A stretch of 28,177 bases of DNA from IMG/VR virus record IMGVR_UViG_3300036982_000164, positions 1 through 28,177 of that record, one strand, 5' to 3'. Origin of the DNA: a virus (Duplodnaviria; Caudoviricetes). A model generated the notes under the pieces. That model searched no databases and was not told where the DNA came from. It worked only from the letters and a program-made list of their open reading frames with translations. Positions 632 through 23,204 of the stretch are shown in pieces. Each line of letters starts with the position of its first letter. Positions within the stretch are counted from its first letter, which is position 1. The translations under genes and the position numbers were made by a program.

Positions 632-718
632 TTATTGTGATTGTAAATTATCACCATTTTGACCCATCAATTCATCTAAGTTTTCACTCAGTAGAAATTG
701 TGGGTTATCTATGGGTTT
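632..718 (-). other. -1 programmed frameshift cassette and 26-aa C-terminal extension of MCP
   Basis: Slippery A_AAC_CCA (718-712) directly before UAG, 6-nt spacer, hairpin 705-662 with GAAA tetraloop; -1 frame reads IDNPQFLLSENLDELMGQNGDNLQSQ* ending at 632. Confidence 0.75.
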
Positions 719-1752
719 ACAATGCTAACGCAATTCACATAGTTAACACCTGATAACTTATCTCCAGCCTCATAGATGTCAGTTGGAAGAGTAACAATCT
801 TACCAGTAGCAGTTACGATAACAGAAAGGTTACCACAATCATCTTTCAATGTTAGGTCAACTGGTACACCAGCTGGTGTGAAAGCAATTGTACGAGCATA
901 ACCAGCACCAACAGATGGAGTGAAATTTGAGTTCCACTCAGCAAGGTTATAAGATAACCACTGAATTGCTCCAGCAGTAGTCACCAATGCGTGAGTTTGG
1001 TCACCTTGAGCAGCAGCTACACGAGAGTCATAAGCAAAACCAAAACCATTTTGTTGGCTGATAGCTAACAAATCAATACCTGAGTTAGTGCAACATCCAG
1101 CCTTAACTGCATTAGCATATCTCTGCATTGCTGCACCACCAAAAGCAATTGGTGCTGCTGGGTAGTTAGCCATTGTTGTTGCTTGTTGGATATCAGCAAG
1201 AGCAAATGGGTTAACTTCATTACCAGCATTGATTGTATTTACTTCGATGCAGTCACCATCCATTGTGAAGAAATTTTCAACATCTGTACCCCAAGTACCA
1301 ATAGCAGCTACTGCTTGAGTAGCAGCAACAGATGCTACTTTGCGGTCAATCACATCCATTAGTCGCATAACTGACTCAAGGAAGTAAACATTGTTATCTT
1401 GGCAATGACGAGCAATATCTGCTCCTGAGATTAACTGAGATGCTTGGTAAGTATCTGTAGTCTCAAGGGTGTATGTTTCAGTAGAATCACCATATACATT
1501 AGTAGCAGAGCAGTTCATAATATCTGCACCAGCATCTACTTCTGTTTCAGGTAATCGTTGAATCCATCGTGCTTCAATTGTGCGTAGTTTACCACCACCA
1601 GCAGAAACTTGTTGACGAATTAATTTTACGTTCTCAGGTGAGTTAAGATACTCAAGAAAAGGTAATGACTCACGTTGACCAACCTCAATGAAGAGTTGAC
1701 CAAGTGGTGCTTGAATGTTTGGACATTCGGAAAGTATACGAGAAATTGACAT
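709..1752 (-). CDS. Major capsid protein
   Basis: 347 aa; follows portal, head morphogenesis and scaffold genes; has its own leader and terminator; size fits an HK97-fold MCP. Confidence 0.8.
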   Translation of the reverse strand: MSISRILSECPNIQAPLGQLFIEVGQRESLPFLEYLNSPENVKLIRQQVSAGGGKLRTIEARWIQRLPETEVDAGADIMNCSATNVYGDSTETYTLETTDTYQASQLISGADIARHCQDNNVYFLESVMRLMDVIDRKVASVAATQAVAAIGTWGTDVENFFTMDGDCIEVNTINAGNEVNPFALADIQQATTMANYPAAPIAFGGAAMQRYANAVKAGCCTNSGIDLLAISQQNGFGFAYDSRVAAAQGDQTHALVTTAGAIQWLSYNLAEWNSNFTPSVGAGYARTIAFTPAGVPVDLTLKDDCGNLSVIVTATGKIVTLPTDIYEAGDKLSGVNYVNCVSIVNP

Positions 1753-3091: not shown

Positions 3092-4036
3092 TTAGGCTGA
3101 TAATCTTGCACCTCTTGGTGTTTCATTAGTATCAAAACCTTCAGCCTTTGCTCTTGCCTTAACTGATGGGTCAACCATATCTGATTCAATTGGTATTAAG
3201 TAGTGTCTGCAATTCCAACCACCAACAAATGTGAATATTGATGTAGAATCAGTTCCATCAATCCTACCAGCCCAATTACCATCAACTATATCATTGATAC
3301 CTCCTGAATTGATACCTCTACCCCATTGCTCAATTTCTTCCCTATGAAATACTTCACCTTCACGATGCTGACAAAATGGTCTTGTTGTTGGTATCTCACC
3401 ACCCAAGTATTCAAAGTATATAGCACCAATGGTTTCATTAATAGCAGATGAGTATGACCTATCAGCAACTGCCTGAGCAGTTAAAGCAGTTGTCTTAATG
3501 TGTCTTAGTAGATTGCCCTCTGTTGAATCAGTTCCAACTATAACACCTTCTAATGCTTTGATGGTTTCACTTAATGGAGCACGAGCAGATATGTTAGTCA
3601 CCAACTGCTCAACAAATGGTTGAGTGACATTATTCTTTAAACCACTTCCAATAAAGGTATCAATGGCATTGGTCTTAGATATCTGTAGTAACTTAGTCTG
3701 AGCAGCAGTAGGCTCAAATCCATCCTCAAATTTTTGAGCAATTTCATTGGTCAATACTACACCCTCATCAATTGAGTTAAGAAAGGTCTTAATGACATTC
3801 TGATATTCCTTACCACCAAGTACCTCATTAAGTTTATCTGCAATGATTCCAATTCTTGCTACGTTGTTATCACTCTGAATGATATTACCAGTAGCATCTA
3901 CCTCAAGGTCATTGATTACTGGCAAGAGTTCCTTCCATATCTTCAACTGAACCTTCTCAGTAGCATTCCCCATTTTATCAGGAGTGCTATCAAAAAGTTT
4001 AATCTTATCGTTGACTATGTCCCTAAGCGATGCCAC
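3092..4036 (-). CDS. Head morphogenesis / minor capsid (MuF/gp7-like) protein
   Basis: Follows portal; YLGG..TTRPFC and GGWNCRH motifs. Confidence 0.75.
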   Translation of the reverse strand: MASLRDIVNDKIKLFDSTPDKMGNATEKVQLKIWKELLPVINDLEVDATGNIIQSDNNVARIGIIADKLNEVLGGKEYQNVIKTFLNSIDEGVVLTNEIAQKFEDGFEPTAAQTKLLQISKTNAIDTFIGSGLKNNVTQPFVEQLVTNISARAPLSETIKALEGVIVGTDSTEGNLLRHIKTTALTAQAVADRSYSSAINETIGAIYFEYLGGEIPTTRPFCQHREGEVFHREEIEQWGRGINSGGINDIVDGNWAGRIDGTDSTSIFTFVGGWNCRHYLIPIESDMVDPSVKARAKAEGFDTNETPRGARLSA

Positions 4037-5936
4037 TCAAAAGATTTTGTTGAGCCAATTGGATTGGGTCAAGTACCTCTCTTACCTTACCTACCGCTGC
4101 ATCCCTTAATTGAATTATTTGGTCTTGCATTGATTGGTCTAAGAAATTTTGATAATCAGCATTTGGTTCAAATGTTCTTACTAATTCCATTACAAGTTGA
4201 GGTGCTGATTGGTGAAGTACATCTTGCCACTTCTCAATTGTACCTAATCCAAGTCTTGCAACTATGTCTGCTTGACCCATCAACAAGAGTTCATCTGCAC
4301 TCATTATGAGTTCATACATAGCAGCACTCTCATCATCAGTATAGTTGATGGCTTTGATGTAGTTGTATACGTTTGCATAGGTCACCGCTGGAGGCACACC
4401 AGCAGCAATACCCTCTGATATAACTGCAAGATAATCTGATGGAGTGCTGATATCAAATGAAGTAGGATATACAAGAGTAATGCCTCCAAAGTATTCACCA
4501 TAGCGCATTGAACCAATAGTTTGAAGAATGAATTCATACATACCAAATAGTTGGTCAGATATAGGCTTTACAAAAGCATACAATGCTCTCATCTTATTTA
4601 ATGAACCAGTAGCAGTTGATGCCTCACCTATAGTACCTGATGCATCACTTGATGGTAGATGAAGTACACTCCTTGACTTATCCATCTGAGTATTAATCTC
4701 ATTTCTCAAGAAGGTCAATGTGTCCATTGGTGGAGAAACAAACTTCATATAGTCACCACTTAATCCACTATCACCCTCACTCAATGATGTCTTTGGTTTA
4801 ACTAACAACATACCAGTTGGACTGAATCGACTCTTAACACCAGCACCTCCGCAAGAAGAGCACCCACGATATCCTCCACCAATAGGGTCAAATATCTGAC
4901 CATTGTCGCATCTGTTACCTTCTCTATCTACGAATTCACATATCTCACCAAGTGCAACCATAAATGGAAATGCAGAGGTAGCCTTAGACATCTGTAGATA
5001 TGACTCATCAAGTACAACTTGGTCAAGCAATGGAACTGCTGTGATGAATGGAGATTGAAATACTAACTCATTGTTGACAAGCAATGGTGTACCCATCAAC
5101 TTACGACAAGGCACATAACCTAAATCGTGTTTAAAATAAACAACTGGCTCACCAAATGTCATATCAGATTTCTTACCTACTTGTTCGATTCTCCATATGT
5201 TGGTATCATCAAATAACTCAAGTATGATTCCTGATTCCTCTGTCTTTGTACCTACTTTAATATAACTCTTATCTTCATCAATTACTAAGTACCACTTACC
5301 ATACTCTTGACCTACGATTCTCTTGCAGTTGTAATAAGAAGGCATTGGTTTAATAAGGTTATTACCAAGTAGCACCTCTTCACCATTGTCATTCTCATCT
5401 TCATAATCAAAATCTTCAGGCTCAATTGCAATGATTCCGTTAGGGTCAATCAACTTGAGAGTAGGTAGCATTGACTTAACAAATGTTTCTACACTACCAA
5501 ACTTCTCAATCTCCTCATTGATGAATCTGCTGAATGTGTCTTCACCAAATCTTTCATCAGTTTCAGGTCTTACATTGATTGACCAGTTTTGGTCAGCAAA
5601 TGCACGAGAGATAGTAGCCTTGAAATCTTCAAAGACATTAAGAGTAGTAGCCTTGTAATTAGCCTTTATGTACTCATATTGTGCCTCAGTCTGATTAGGT
5701 GACCTAACTGATAATAAATGCTCAGGATAGACATCTGCTCGTGCGTGAGGTAAAATAGAATCATACATCATAGCAGAGAAATTGTACCCATCCCAATATT
5801 CGGGATACTGGTACATTCCTACTCTTCTCTTTGAGATAGGATTAGTTGCAGACCTTGACTTGTCATTATCGAATGCCTTATGTTTATAGGCAAACTTTCT
5901 AACAATCTTGTTTACCTCCTCAATTGAGAGTGCCAT
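4023..5936 (-). CDS. Portal protein
   Basis: 637 aa, precedes head morphogenesis gene; HDLGYVP motif typical of portals; carries a Cys-rich CxxCxGxG insertion. Confidence 0.75.
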   Translation of the reverse strand: MALSIEEVNKIVRKFAYKHKAFDNDKSRSATNPISKRRVGMYQYPEYWDGYNFSAMMYDSILPHARADVYPEHLLSVRSPNQTEAQYEYIKANYKATTLNVFEDFKATISRAFADQNWSINVRPETDERFGEDTFSRFINEEIEKFGSVETFVKSMLPTLKLIDPNGIIAIEPEDFDYEDENDNGEEVLLGNNLIKPMPSYYNCKRIVGQEYGKWYLVIDEDKSYIKVGTKTEESGIILELFDDTNIWRIEQVGKKSDMTFGEPVVYFKHDLGYVPCRKLMGTPLLVNNELVFQSPFITAVPLLDQVVLDESYLQMSKATSAFPFMVALGEICEFVDREGNRCDNGQIFDPIGGGYRGCSSCGGAGVKSRFSPTGMLLVKPKTSLSEGDSGLSGDYMKFVSPPMDTLTFLRNEINTQMDKSRSVLHLPSSDASGTIGEASTATGSLNKMRALYAFVKPISDQLFGMYEFILQTIGSMRYGEYFGGITLVYPTSFDISTPSDYLAVISEGIAAGVPPAVTYANVYNYIKAINYTDDESAAMYELIMSADELLLMGQADIVARLGLGTIEKWQDVLHQSAPQLVMELVRTFEPNADYQNFLDQSMQDQIIQLRDAAVGKVREVLDPIQLAQQNLLSGIA

Positions 5937-6025: not shown

Positions 6026-6682
6026 TTATTTATGGATTATTGAAAGACCACGACCCTCAGGTGTGTTCAAAGTTACTGCTTTGTATCTGTAATTATTCAT
6101 AAATTTTATTAGCTTCTTAGGTGCTTCTAAATGAATAGTATCGTGATAAACGATAACACCACCTCTACTAACTAACTTATCAACTAATCTAAATTCAGGT
6201 AGAATAGATGCCCAAGAATGGTCACCATCAACAAATATCAAATCAAAGTGAGCAGTAGGTAATTTCTTCAATTCAATGTGTGAGTTACCTAATATGAAAT
6301 CAATTGACTTACCACCCTCTTTCATATACAACTTAGTTGCTGGTGTACGATAATCATTGATATCAATACCAACATATTGACCTCCTTGAGGTAGTGATTT
6401 AATAAGTGCTTGAGATGTTTCACCCTCAAATACTCCAATCTCTAAAATGGTCTTGTACTTTGACATCTTAACAAGTGATGCTAAAAACTCACCAACTTCT
6501 ACTTCAGAGTTCCATTCGTGTCTTGCAACTTCTTTGAATGTAGCAGTAGTAACAATCTCAACAATTGGAGAATCATCAATTAACTCTACAACAATTGGTG
6601 TATCATTAATGACCTCTTCAACTAATTCTGTAGTAGTTTTCTTAGGTCTTCCTTTCGGTTTTTTGGTAGTAGTGTCTTTCAT
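6026..6682 (-). CDS. Class I SAM-dependent methyltransferase (Methyltransf_24-like O-MTase)
   Basis: ILEIGVFEG, VGID, DLIFVDGDH and GGVIVYHD motifs; N-terminal KPKGRPKK. Confidence 0.85.
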   Translation of the reverse strand: MKDTTTKKPKGRPKKTTTELVEEVINDTPIVVELIDDSPIVEIVTTATFKEVARHEWNSEVEVGEFLASLVKMSKYKTILEIGVFEGETSQALIKSLPQGGQYVGIDINDYRTPATKLYMKEGGKSIDFILGNSHIELKKLPTAHFDLIFVDGDHSWASILPEFRLVDKLVSRGGVIVYHDTIHLEAPKKLIKFMNNYRYKAVTLNTPEGRGLSIIHK

Positions 6683-18037: not shown

Positions 18038-18832
18038 TTAATCTAATCCTACGAATGCCTTTAGTGGGTAGAATACAAGTGAGTTTCTATATCCTCCTTC
18101 ATGTGTTGGTGTGATAGGTGTTACCCCATGAACATTTCTCCACGCAGGATAAACAAGTATAGAATTGTCTTGCTGTCCTATGGTTGCTCCATAATCTGGT
18201 ATATGTAGGTCACCGCCTTTAGAATTAAACTTCTTGCAGATGATTACATTAACCGCCCCTACTATGTTACCAGTGTCTCTGTGGAATGGTGCTGATATAT
18301 TATAGTTTGAGATTGAACTGGTGAATAGGTTTCCAAACTTCCATTTGTCGGGTACACCTTTGAATAGTTCTACTTGTTGTTCGTATTGCTTAGGTAGTAT
18401 TTCCTTTATTAGTTGCTCACTTTCTTTAGCAAGTAATAACATTGCCTTGATAAATGTTTGTGCAGTCTTAACTGAGTGAACACTTGATATGGTTGCGTAG
18501 TTTCTTCTCATGTGTGGTTTTGGTGGCACACCACCTAAAATACAACTCCATTGATGTACTTCATTTTTATATTTCCATATTCCTTTTTTTTCATCCCATC
18601 CATCAGCTTGTCTTCTATTTAACATTGATTTAGGCACATTCTTACTTCTTAATTCTTTATCTGCAAGGTCTGCAAGTTTGCACATCTTATCAGGCATCTT
18701 TGTTAGATAGAATCCTATTGGTTCTCCATCTGCATAAAATATACTATCTTCTGTTATATTAGGTTCTTTGTAATCGCAATTTTCACCTATTTTAACATTT
18801 TGCTCTACTTTGATTAAGTCTATACGTTTCAT
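18038..18832 (-). CDS. TET/JBP-family 2OG-Fe(II) dioxygenase
   Basis: N.N..APFHRD (HxD), GGDL..PDY, distal HGVTP, RNSLVFY (RxS). Confidence 0.85.
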   Translation of the reverse strand: MKRIDLIKVEQNVKIGENCDYKEPNITEDSIFYADGEPIGFYLTKMPDKMCKLADLADKELRSKNVPKSMLNRRQADGWDEKKGIWKYKNEVHQWSCILGGVPPKPHMRRNYATISSVHSVKTAQTFIKAMLLLAKESEQLIKEILPKQYEQQVELFKGVPDKWKFGNLFTSSISNYNISAPFHRDTGNIVGAVNVIICKKFNSKGGDLHIPDYGATIGQQDNSILVYPAWRNVHGVTPITPTHEGGYRNSLVFYPLKAFVGLD

Positions 18833-19560
18833 TTGACTATTTTATTATAATGATTAGCCAATGCTTTTATATCTGTTTTCATATCTATTCTTTCACCTTT
18901 TCTTTGAAGTGTTATATAGGGATTCCATTCGTAGCACATTTTTTTTGCAGACTCTTCATCTTTTTTTTGTTTGTACATATCATTAAGTCCTCCAGCGTTA
19001 CTACCAATATCAGGACATGAAAACCAATATTTGTTAAACCTCAATATTCCATTTCCATTTTTAATTGTCTGTAGGGCAAAGTCTCTATCCTCTTTAAGAT
19101 TGAACTCAGACCTATAATTCCAATTAATATTTTTAACATTCATTAAGATACAAACCTCTGCAAATTTTTTATTAATTGAGTAATTTGTTTTTTCGTGCCA
19201 TGCGTGTTGAGTATAGTTAATACCTATAATTTCAAATGGTAATGACATTGCTTTTTTTAATATATCAAACCAAATAGTAGCATCTTTTTTTATTGTCTTT
19301 CCATTATAAATTCCAAATGAAACTACATCATCATCGCAGATTATAACCCATTCATAGTTATTTGTTCTTGCATAATCAAGCATAAAATTACGAACATATC
19401 CAATACCTTTATCGTTTTCTACAATACATACTTTATTTGGAACTTGATATTTATCAATTTCTTGTGGTTCAATAAAGTGCTTTACCTCTATTCCAGCATC
19501 TTGAAATAGTTTGTATGTTTTGGTTTGTGGTCTACCTTTAGTGGGTATAAAGCAAATCAT
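18829..19560 (-). CDS. TET-associated GT-A glycosyltransferase
   Basis: FIPTKGR, GIGYVRN, CDDD, KEDRDF and N.GG motifs; ATGA-coupled to the TET gene. Confidence 0.8.
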   Translation of the reverse strand: MICFIPTKGRPQTKTYKLFQDAGIEVKHFIEPQEIDKYQVPNKVCIVENDKGIGYVRNFMLDYARTNNYEWVIICDDDVVSFGIYNGKTIKKDATIWFDILKKAMSLPFEIIGINYTQHAWHEKTNYSINKKFAEVCILMNVKNINWNYRSEFNLKEDRDFALQTIKNGNGILRFNKYWFSCPDIGSNAGGLNDMYKQKKDEESAKKMCYEWNPYITLQRKGERIDMKTDIKALANHYNKIVK

Positions 19561-22349: not shown

Positions 22350-23204
22350 TTAGTCAGTGCAATATCCTGCTTGACATCCACTACCTATTCCAAAATTGAA
22401 TGATTGCTGCAAACCAATCTTTTTAATATTATCATAGTTAGTTTTACTTTTATAATTATACTTTGAAATTCGCTCTTGTTCAGAAAACCATTCCATTTTG
22501 TTTGGGTGGTCATCCCAATTTTTTCTTAATTGTTGAGTATCCTTCCAAAAGCACCCAATGCAGTTACTATCTTCTTGAAAGTCTATACTTTTATTTTGCC
22601 AATAGTTTCTCACTTGATGGTGCATAATCTTATCATAGATTAAAGGGTAATTTGCCACACCCCAAAAAACCATATCCCACTTATTTCTTGTGCCTCTTTT
22701 ACCAACAATTATTTTTGACCTTAGTTCTCTATCTTTTTTTGCACGATGTTCCTCATCATATCTAAAACCAACATTTGAAAATACAGGCATCATATCGTAT
22801 TGTGGCATTATGTTGTTATAGACAAAGTTTGCTATTGGATATATTTTCATATCACTTGTACAATATCTTCTTTCCATGTTAGGTACTAACCTACCATGTT
22901 TTTTATTTACAATATCAAAACTATCACCCCTTATCCATATTATTTCTTTGCCAATCATTTGCTCCAAGTCAAACATTACCTTAAGTATTTTGTCATCTTC
23001 AGCAGTTGCTATGAAGTCCCCATATTTTTCAGTATATCCATACTTTGATAATTTGTCATTTACCATCTGAATTATTTTTTTATCATTTGGTCTACACTTG
23101 TCACCATCTATTGTAACAAGTGAAAATATGTTATAGTCAGCAGGATAATGAACTGCTAAGTATGAACTTGTTTTACCTCCACTTAAACTATTTATACTTA
23201 TCAT
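22350..23204 (-). CDS. PAPS-reductase-like PP-loop protein
   Basis: SLSGGKTS (PP-loop), RYCT..MK..PI, GFRYDE..R, YPL, SNCIGCF, terminal Cys pair. Confidence 0.85.
   Translation of the reverse strand: MISINSLSGGKTSSYLAVHYPADYNIFSLVTIDGDKCRPNDKKIIQMVNDKLSKYGYTEKYGDFIATAEDDKILKVMFDLEQMIGKEIIWIRGDSFDIVNKKHGRLVPNMERRYCTSDMKIYPIANFVYNNIMPQYDMMPVFSNVGFRYDEEHRAKKDRELRSKIIVGKRGTRNKWDMVFWGVANYPLIYDKIMHHQVRNYWQNKSIDFQEDSNCIGCFWKDTQQLRKNWDDHPNKMEWFSEQERISKYNYKSKTNYDNIKKIGLQQSFNFGIGSGCQAGYCTD

Follow-up and report, generated by a model that had tools for sequence, protein, structure and literature searches.

A probable -1 frameshift at the stop codon of the major capsid protein gene in uncultured freshwater phages, supported by comparison of relatives

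The capsid gene and its genomic setting

The window, i.e., the whole stretch of DNA analyzed here, is an IMG/VR virus contig of 28,177 bases (completeness ~80%) from a large group of uncultured freshwater phages. On its minus strand, the genes of the head module follow each other from a portal gene (4023-5936, PHROG 7376) through two genes of 314 and 271 codons, the latter in the scaffold position, to a capsid gene that ends with GTA AAC CCA TAG (720-709). The features found at and behind this 3' end are collected in Table 1.

Table 1. Features at the 3' end of the capsid gene (positions refer to the window)
Feature	Position	Strand	Description
Major capsid protein gene	1752..709	minus	347-aa ORF in frame 0, HK97 fold by model, stop codon UAG (711-709)
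Putative slippery heptamer A_AAC_CCA (X_XXY_YYZ)	718-712	minus	last two sense codons and the preceding A
Frame-0 stop UAG	711-709	minus	directly 3' of the heptamer; possible second stimulator
-1-frame tail ORF	712..632	minus	26 codons (712-635) and TAA (634-632)
Hairpin of 44 nt, putative stimulator	705-662	minus	GAAA loop (685-682), 6-nt spacer (711-706)
Terminator-like stem	629-596	minus	10 pairs, 11-nt loop and T run; G+C-rich; 2 nt past the tail stop

The 347-aa protein had zero matches in Pfam and PHROGs, nothing relevant in the PDB by sequence, and zero matches in the phage collection, i.e., no close cultured relative there; the portal found a sole weak match in the same collection, Croceibacter phage P2559S (26% identity, partial). 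Its AlphaFold2 model (input of 88 relatives, pLDDT 85.4, pTM 0.82) was matched by Foldseek to 316 PDB chains at E <= 0.001, the best of which were all phage capsid proteins (Mycobacteriophage Douge gp8, cyanophage Mic1, phi29, and T7, the last with 3j7w at E 6.7e-7), and the best BFVD matches were named major capsid protein. Together with the position in the head module, these fold matches indicate that the product is, as modeled, an HK97-fold major capsid protein belonging to a family missed by current libraries. The wider family comprises 376 clusters at 50% identity, none of them recognised by Pfam or PHROGs.

In relatives with as little as 27% identity, the cysteines of the capsid protein are conserved to an unusual degree: C81 and C306 never vary, and C10, C117, C220, and C221 are kept in at least 90%. 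These residues might form disulfides or bind metal in the capsid. Elsewhere in the window, genes at 18038-19560, 22350-23204, and 6026-6682 (minus strand) carry PHROG names related to DNA or base modification (queuine tRNA-ribosyltransferase, hydroxymethyl-cytosine-type glucosyltransferase, PAPS-reductase-like protein, DNA methyltransferase), and these matches suggest that the DNA of the phage is chemically modified. A comparison with 185,579 species genomes gave a single match, locus L160 on a 5-kb contig of a MAG labelled Bacteriovoracaceae, not enough for a host assignment. L160 has a tail-less capsid gene that ends with AAT CCA TAG.

Relatives and classes of 3' ends

The 3' end of the capsid gene was compared in 155 rows, namely the window, 76 IMG/VR loci, and 78 metagenome loci. 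The IMG/VR loci were drawn from 77 with 62-93% identity, after L072 (N-terminus only) was dropped, while the metagenome scan kept 80 out of 120 relatives, from which L156 and L157 were dropped as they were cut before the C-terminus. Both collections share contigs and the rows are therefore not independent; distinct 3' ends are given alongside the counts. A tail of 25-28 codons in the -1 frame was present in 120 rows (78 distinct 3' ends), the same tail lay in frame 0 behind the stop in five (5 distinct; L034 was reassigned to this class by hand after inspection) and in the +1 frame in two (2 distinct), 27 rows had no tail (19 distinct), and one row was cut. No protein with the tail fused in frame, without a stop, was found among the 120 homologous proteins listed, the four longest of which are N-terminal mis-starts.

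Conservation of the slippery site and of the adjacent stop

A preliminary description, made from the letters of the window, had proposed that a hidden -1 frameshift at the capsid stop appends 26 residues to a fraction of the capsid subunits. The XXXYYYZ heptamer A AAC CCA on which it was based is present and in frame, and it is conserved among the relatives: in the 120 rows with a -1-frame tail, C_CCR occurs in all and A_AAC_CCR in 114, and its synonymous sites are constrained. The Val(-3) codon is GTA in 76 of 79 distinct genes and the Asn(-2) codon AAC in 81 of 85, with a third-position entropy of 0.27 compared to a median of 1.0 for 214 conserved degenerate codons (85 distinct genes), which places both third positions within the top five for constraint. 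For the last Pro, 120/120 rows have CCG or CCA and none has CCT or CCC, CCT accounting for 44% of the Pro codons elsewhere in the same genes. The A that precedes AAC is kept even where Val is replaced by Ala (GCA) or Thr (ACA), and AAC is never AAT beside CCR, which argues for selection on the whole heptamer. A Shine-Dalgarno-like stimulator upstream of the heptamer was not visible in the window sequence.

The frame-0 stop directly adjoins the site in 114 of the 120 rows, in agreement with the earlier suggestion that the adjacent stop may help the slip. It lies one codon later in the remaining six, where TCA or TCT separates CCG from the stop and AAACCCG is kept throughout; six other rows lack AAA (GTC_CCG in five, GCC_CCG in one), and in all of these the stop adjoins the site. 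Neither feature is thus strictly required, and the two are never missing together. In this class the stop is TAA in 69 rows, TAG in 51, and UGA in none; TGA ends 11 of the 27 genes of the window.

The reservation voiced in the preliminary description about a C-rich YYY proved justified. According to PMC4066793, A_AA.C_CC.A is one of the three heptamers out of 64 that did not reach the threshold for being frameshift-prone in E. coli, even when combined with the IS3 pseudoknot, and the tetramers C_CCA and C_CCG gave 1.8-3.6 times the background. A_AAC_CCA does not count as shift-prone in this bacterial system, which may not reflect the behaviour of the phage's host. A literature search with the letters of the heptamer returned primer lists only.

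Coding signature of the tail frame

As had been reported, the -1 frame of the window is open for all the residues listed and closes at 632. At least 26 open codons were also retained in 1954 of 20000 mononucleotide shuffles (9.8%) of the 135-nt intergenic stretch, meaning that the open frame of the window alone lies within chance and is not proof, and that the comparative data decide. In 46 distinct tails of 26 or 27 codons (three tails of other lengths were left out), the entropy by codon position was 0.89/0.48/1.02 bits, and it was 0.76/0.18/0.98 in the ten codons beyond the hairpin, i.e., the periodicity was strongest outside the hairpin. Furthermore, pS exceeded pN in 21/21 pairs among seven clade representatives. 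Judged by these patterns, the tail frame is coding, and the conserved open -1 frame that the preliminary description asked for was recovered, at 25-28 codons and with a coding signature, in 120 of the 155 rows.

The peptide is conserved across clades despite greatly differing nucleotides. It keeps L7-L8, D13, L15-L16, and G20, followed by D, N, and L-L, so that Leu-Leu pairs recur every 8 residues with the turn-prone G/N/D between them; the net charge of the tails ranges from -4 to -8 and K or R occurs in only 2 of 65 distinct tails. In 86/120 rows, the stretch running from the upstream -1-frame stop to tail codon 5 is free of ATG, GTG, and TTG. Moreover, the -1 frame is open for only 4 codons ahead of the capsid stop in 34 rows, and for only 2 in L134 and L144, which leaves no place for the shift other than the site. 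Both observations imply that no separate gene encodes the tail, whose open frame is thus under coding selection without a start of its own.

Six tails searched against Pfam gave no match, and against PHROGs one weak match (E 0.29, for one relative), which agrees with the earlier view that the extension is a short peptide and not an Ig domain; with 26 residues and no Pfam match, no Ig-like domain was found in it. Searching the ESM Atlas with the 30-residue -1 ORF returned nothing of use, and a six-frame regex search of the window for the tail motif found only the tail itself. When the readthrough isoform of L029 was modeled with TGA as W, the capsid fold was kept and the tail had a pLDDT of 32-44, giving no structural lead. 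In a comparison of ten genomes (six with a -1 tail, one with readthrough, and three without a tail, two of which are incomplete), no ORF cluster was shared by every tail-bearing genome and missing from every tail-less one, a weak test. By analogy with T7 10B, the tail probably forms a flexible, exposed extension.

A conserved hairpin downstream of the site

The GNRA-looped hairpin of 44 nt behind a 6-nt spacer is present as first described, and folds at -17.1 kcal/mol compared to -6.6 +/- 2.3 for shuffled sequences (z -4.65), none of 200 shuffles being as stable. All 49 distinct IMG/VR tail sequences fold into a long hairpin (-11.3 to -27.1 kcal/mol); its first paired base lies 5-7 nt past the site in 36 of them, while in the other 13 the minimum free energy fold adds a few outer pairs. 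In the window and in these 36 sequences, the spacing falls within the 5-9 nt expected of a -1 frameshift cassette.

In 40 of these 49 sequences, an equally stable fold is reached by 10 or fewer of 200 synonymous recodings that keep the peptide. The base helix covaries, one pair being GC in 25 and CG in 22 cases and another CG in 17, GC in 16, GU in 8, and AU in 6. Two structural registers exist among the tail-bearing hairpins: in the 25-/26-codon register (39 distinct sequences) 86% of the cells pair and 11/17 pairs changed on both sides, and in the 27-codon register (40 distinct sequences) 88.5% of the cells pair and 9/20 pairs changed on both sides. Shuffled controls never reached these values in either register (0/500) and slid controls paired at 30-48%. 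The stem covariation looked for on the basis of the preliminary description is thus found in both arms, and the two-sided changes, together with the rarity of equally stable synonymous recodings, argue that the hairpin itself is selected. In a 136-nt fold, the slip-site region also pairs with 656-640 and encloses the hairpin (640-725 in all, minus strand); no such pairing could be spotted by eye in other clades, and this candidate was dropped. An Rfam search over positions 500-900 gave nothing near any gathering score.

The terminator-like stem begins right behind the tail, as previously noted, 2 nt after the TAA that ends it. It was omitted by a scan for consensus terminators, which allows loops of up to 8 nt compared to the 11 nt of this stem. 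A G+C-rich stem followed by a T run was also seen within a few nt of the tail stop in the relatives inspected.

Other arrangements of the tail and its repeated loss

Five relatives (L029, L030, L031, L034, and L037), forming one clade with a support of 100, end their capsid gene with TGA and carry a homologous 24-residue tail in frame behind it (3542-3619 in L029), with a hairpin starting 4 nt past the TGA. In these five, it looks like UGA readthrough replaces the frameshift. In the window, frame 0 is open for only 6 codons behind the UAG, so readthrough would not give the tail there. Two further relatives (L104 and L123, one clade, support 100) end with AAC TCG TAA and, in the stretch of ~110 nt behind this stop, have a 24-codon tail in the +1 frame together with an intact hairpin (-26.1 and -24.8 kcal/mol). 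Compared to their sisters with a -1 tail, they show a 1-nt deletion just past the stop as well as a change of CCG to TCG, and no known slippery site for a +1 shift was seen in them. Our literature search returned no description of tailed phages that combine readthrough and frameshifting in capsid genes or switch between the two. Switching of the recoding route between sister lineages is known from retroviral gag-pol.

The distribution of the tail was examined on a FastTree phylogeny of the capsid protein (137 rows, 107 of them different; built without the last six residues). At least 13 changes are required on this tree to explain the tail-less state, and in 13 independent pairs of tail-bearing and tail-less relatives, C_CCR at the stop goes the same way as the tail in 12 and the opposite way in none (sign test p = 0.0005). 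Of the 24 tail-less rows on the tree, 23 have lost the slippery site and end with AAT CCT, AAT GCT, AAC TCA, and the like, L118 being the sole tail-less locus that keeps AAACCCG TAA. Identical tail-less 3' blocks recur across branches, however, so recombination may have spread them, in which case the events may number fewer than 13 and the association between site and tail may be inflated. Four single distant proteins led to one locus, L078, which ends in VDNS and has no tail.

Both states occur within the same samples. A contig of run X1 covers positions 581-820 of the window without any difference, which excludes an assembly artefact, and neither run X1 nor run X2 has indels between 632 and 720. 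At the same time, a contig of X2 skips 601-716, and a loose end at 621 in X1 runs into a tail-less 3' end, so the tail is a presence/absence polymorphism within samples. Since it has been lost repeatedly, the tail appears to be dispensable in the short term, yet it has been kept over long times.

Discussion

Proposed mechanism

Taken together, we consider it likely that the slippery site and the hairpin make a minority of ribosomes slip by -1, adding 26 residues to the capsid protein. In this mechanism, the hairpin would make ribosomes pause while tRNA-Asn and tRNA-Pro occupy AAC_CCA, and both tRNAs would re-pair on AAA_CCC; alternatively, with the stop still in the A site, peptidyl-tRNA-Pro alone would shift its pairing from CCA to CCC. 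In either case, ribosomes would read on to the TAA at 634-632 and yield an isoform of 373 residues (347 + 26). No relative carries the tail fused in frame, and the tail is therefore probably tolerated on a small share of the subunits only. Our best guess, by analogy with known capsid extensions, is a flexible acidic peptide displayed on few subunits.

The poor performance of the heptamer in E. coli is the main objection to this mechanism, and it could be answered in several ways. Low efficiency may be exactly what is needed, as no relative tolerates the tail everywhere; the tRNA-Pro set of the host may differ from that of E. coli; and the adjacent stop could promote a P-site slip of tRNA-Pro during slow termination. 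The frameshift probably has a low efficiency, depends on the host, or gains from the adjacent stop.

Alternative explanations

A variant with the same product, in which peptidyl-tRNA-Pro alone slips from CCR to CCC with the slowly decoded stop in the A site and the hairpin helping, is a possibility that we would take seriously without favouring it. It would explain why C_CCR is the only invariant part of the site (120/120), why the rows with GTC_CCG or GCC_CCG manage without AAA and all have the stop adjoining, why the -1 frame of L134 and L144 can open so late, and why the stop is adjacent in 114/120 rows, and it fits with a full heptamer that is nearly inert in E. coli (PMC4066793). It does not account for the retention of the full AAACCCG in precisely the six rows with TCA or TCT before the stop, nor for the A before AAC that is kept through GCA and ACA, nor for AAC never becoming AAT beside CCR. 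An effect of the shifted ribosomes that is mainly regulatory, by hindering the folding of the terminator and letting transcription proceed into the downstream genes with the peptide being secondary, would make sense of the short distance from tail stop to terminator stem, which is 2 nt in the window and likewise only a few in the relatives inspected. We regard it as improbable, since such a role needs no conservation of the peptide, in which L, D, G, and N are invariant or nearly so and 63 of 65 distinct tails contain no K or R, and since tail-less relatives keep the same terminator and downstream genes.

Explanations without a frameshift during translation fare worse. A strong hairpin between a highly expressed gene and a terminator could well be an untranslated 3' element acting in RNA stability, processing, or attenuation, with an incidental open -1 frame, and the window by itself, where this frame is within chance, would allow it; the periodicity that is strongest outside the hairpin, pS > pN in all 21 pairs, the length fixed at 25-28 codons in 120 rows, a peptide conserved through nucleotide divergence, and the joint loss of site and tail make this highly unlikely. 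Re-initiation after the capsid stop, giving the tail as a separate small peptide, finds some footing in the overlap of the stop with the first tail codon, as in some coupled genes, and in the 34/120 rows with an ATG, GTG, or TTG nearby, and is nonetheless hardly credible: the first tail codon is GTA or ATA and 86 of the 120 rows scanned for starts have no standard one, while in the relatives with the tail in frame 0 or +1, which were outside that scan, the first tail codon is ATA or AAT except for L034 (ATG). Finally, the chance that the change of frame stems from an assembly error, a recent mutation, or transcriptional slippage is practically negligible, as the same arrangement recurs in 120 rows from many samples, the X1 contig is identical over 581-820, both runs are free of indels over 632-720, and A3C3 offers no long homopolymer for polymerase slippage. 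The preferred reading thus remains a predicted -1 shift of ribosomes at the end of the capsid gene, supported by comparison of relatives.

Comparison with known recoding systems

In T7, the shift takes place at G_GUU_UUC and the extension is roughly 50 residues long. The tail of the window has about half this length, and its site, A_AAC_CCR, differs from that of T7 and abuts the stop; beyond the HK97 fold, no sequence relationship between the two capsid proteins was detected. The five relatives with UGA resemble phage Q-beta, in which readthrough of the UGA of the coat protein gene produces the minor coat protein A1, in that their extension lies in frame behind UGA, a route that the window itself lacks. 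Q-beta itself has an RNA genome and an unrelated coat fold.

Extension of capsid proteins by -1 frameshifting is described for T7 and T3 (gene 10), Lactobacillus phage A2, and the Listeria phages A118 and A500, and the Listeria phage PSA uses a +1 shift at a CCC proline codon with a downstream pseudoknot in its capsid gene and shifts at CCC_UGA, beside the stop, in its tail-shaft gene (PMC5009743). Based on the same source, the window would be similar to T7 10A/10B and T3 gene 10 in having a -1 shift near the end of the capsid gene that gives a minor longer isoform (predicted in the case of the window), and to A2, A118, A500, and PSA in the recoding at the 3' end of the capsid gene. The differences concern the extension, a 26-residue repeat peptide without family match as opposed to the Ig-like domains of A2 and T3 (that of T7 is not Ig-like), and the slip, which would be -1 on C_CCR in the window and is +1 on CCC_N in PSA (PMC5009743). 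The frameshift cassettes of dnaX, IS911, and IS3 share with the window an X_XXY_YYZ heptamer, a short spacer, and a downstream structure (PMC4066793). They have sites of the A_AAA_AAG type. The heptamer of the window is among the three worst of the 64 in E. coli (PMC4066793).

The case likely works like the known capsid recoding of the T7 10B or phage A2 kind, in an unusual form. Four differences set it apart from the known cases: the site, the abutting stop, the short repeat tail that is not Ig-like, and the switching of routes within the lineage.

Implications for the phage group

A bolder proposal, which we put forward only tentatively, is that the tail must be present, but on few subunits, and would be kept behind a recoding barrier by three routes (a -1 slip on C_CCR beside the stop, UGA readthrough, and an unexplained +1/-2 shift), with A_AAC_CCR-stop representing a new stop-assisted class of bacterial -1 sites that is not predicted by the rules derived from E. 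coli.

Recoded capsid isoforms are known from a handful of cultured phages, and a large uncultured freshwater group would be added to these, on evidence that is purely comparative but unusually complete. A conserved site that is rated almost inert in E. coli provides a test of the generality of those rules, and of whether an adjacent stop can replace a good heptamer. Sister lineages would reach the same tail via a frameshift, readthrough, or a +1 arrangement. Frequent loss of the tail, and the lack of any in-frame fusion among the relatives, make it a natural test case for why certain capsid decorations have to stay sub-stoichiometric.
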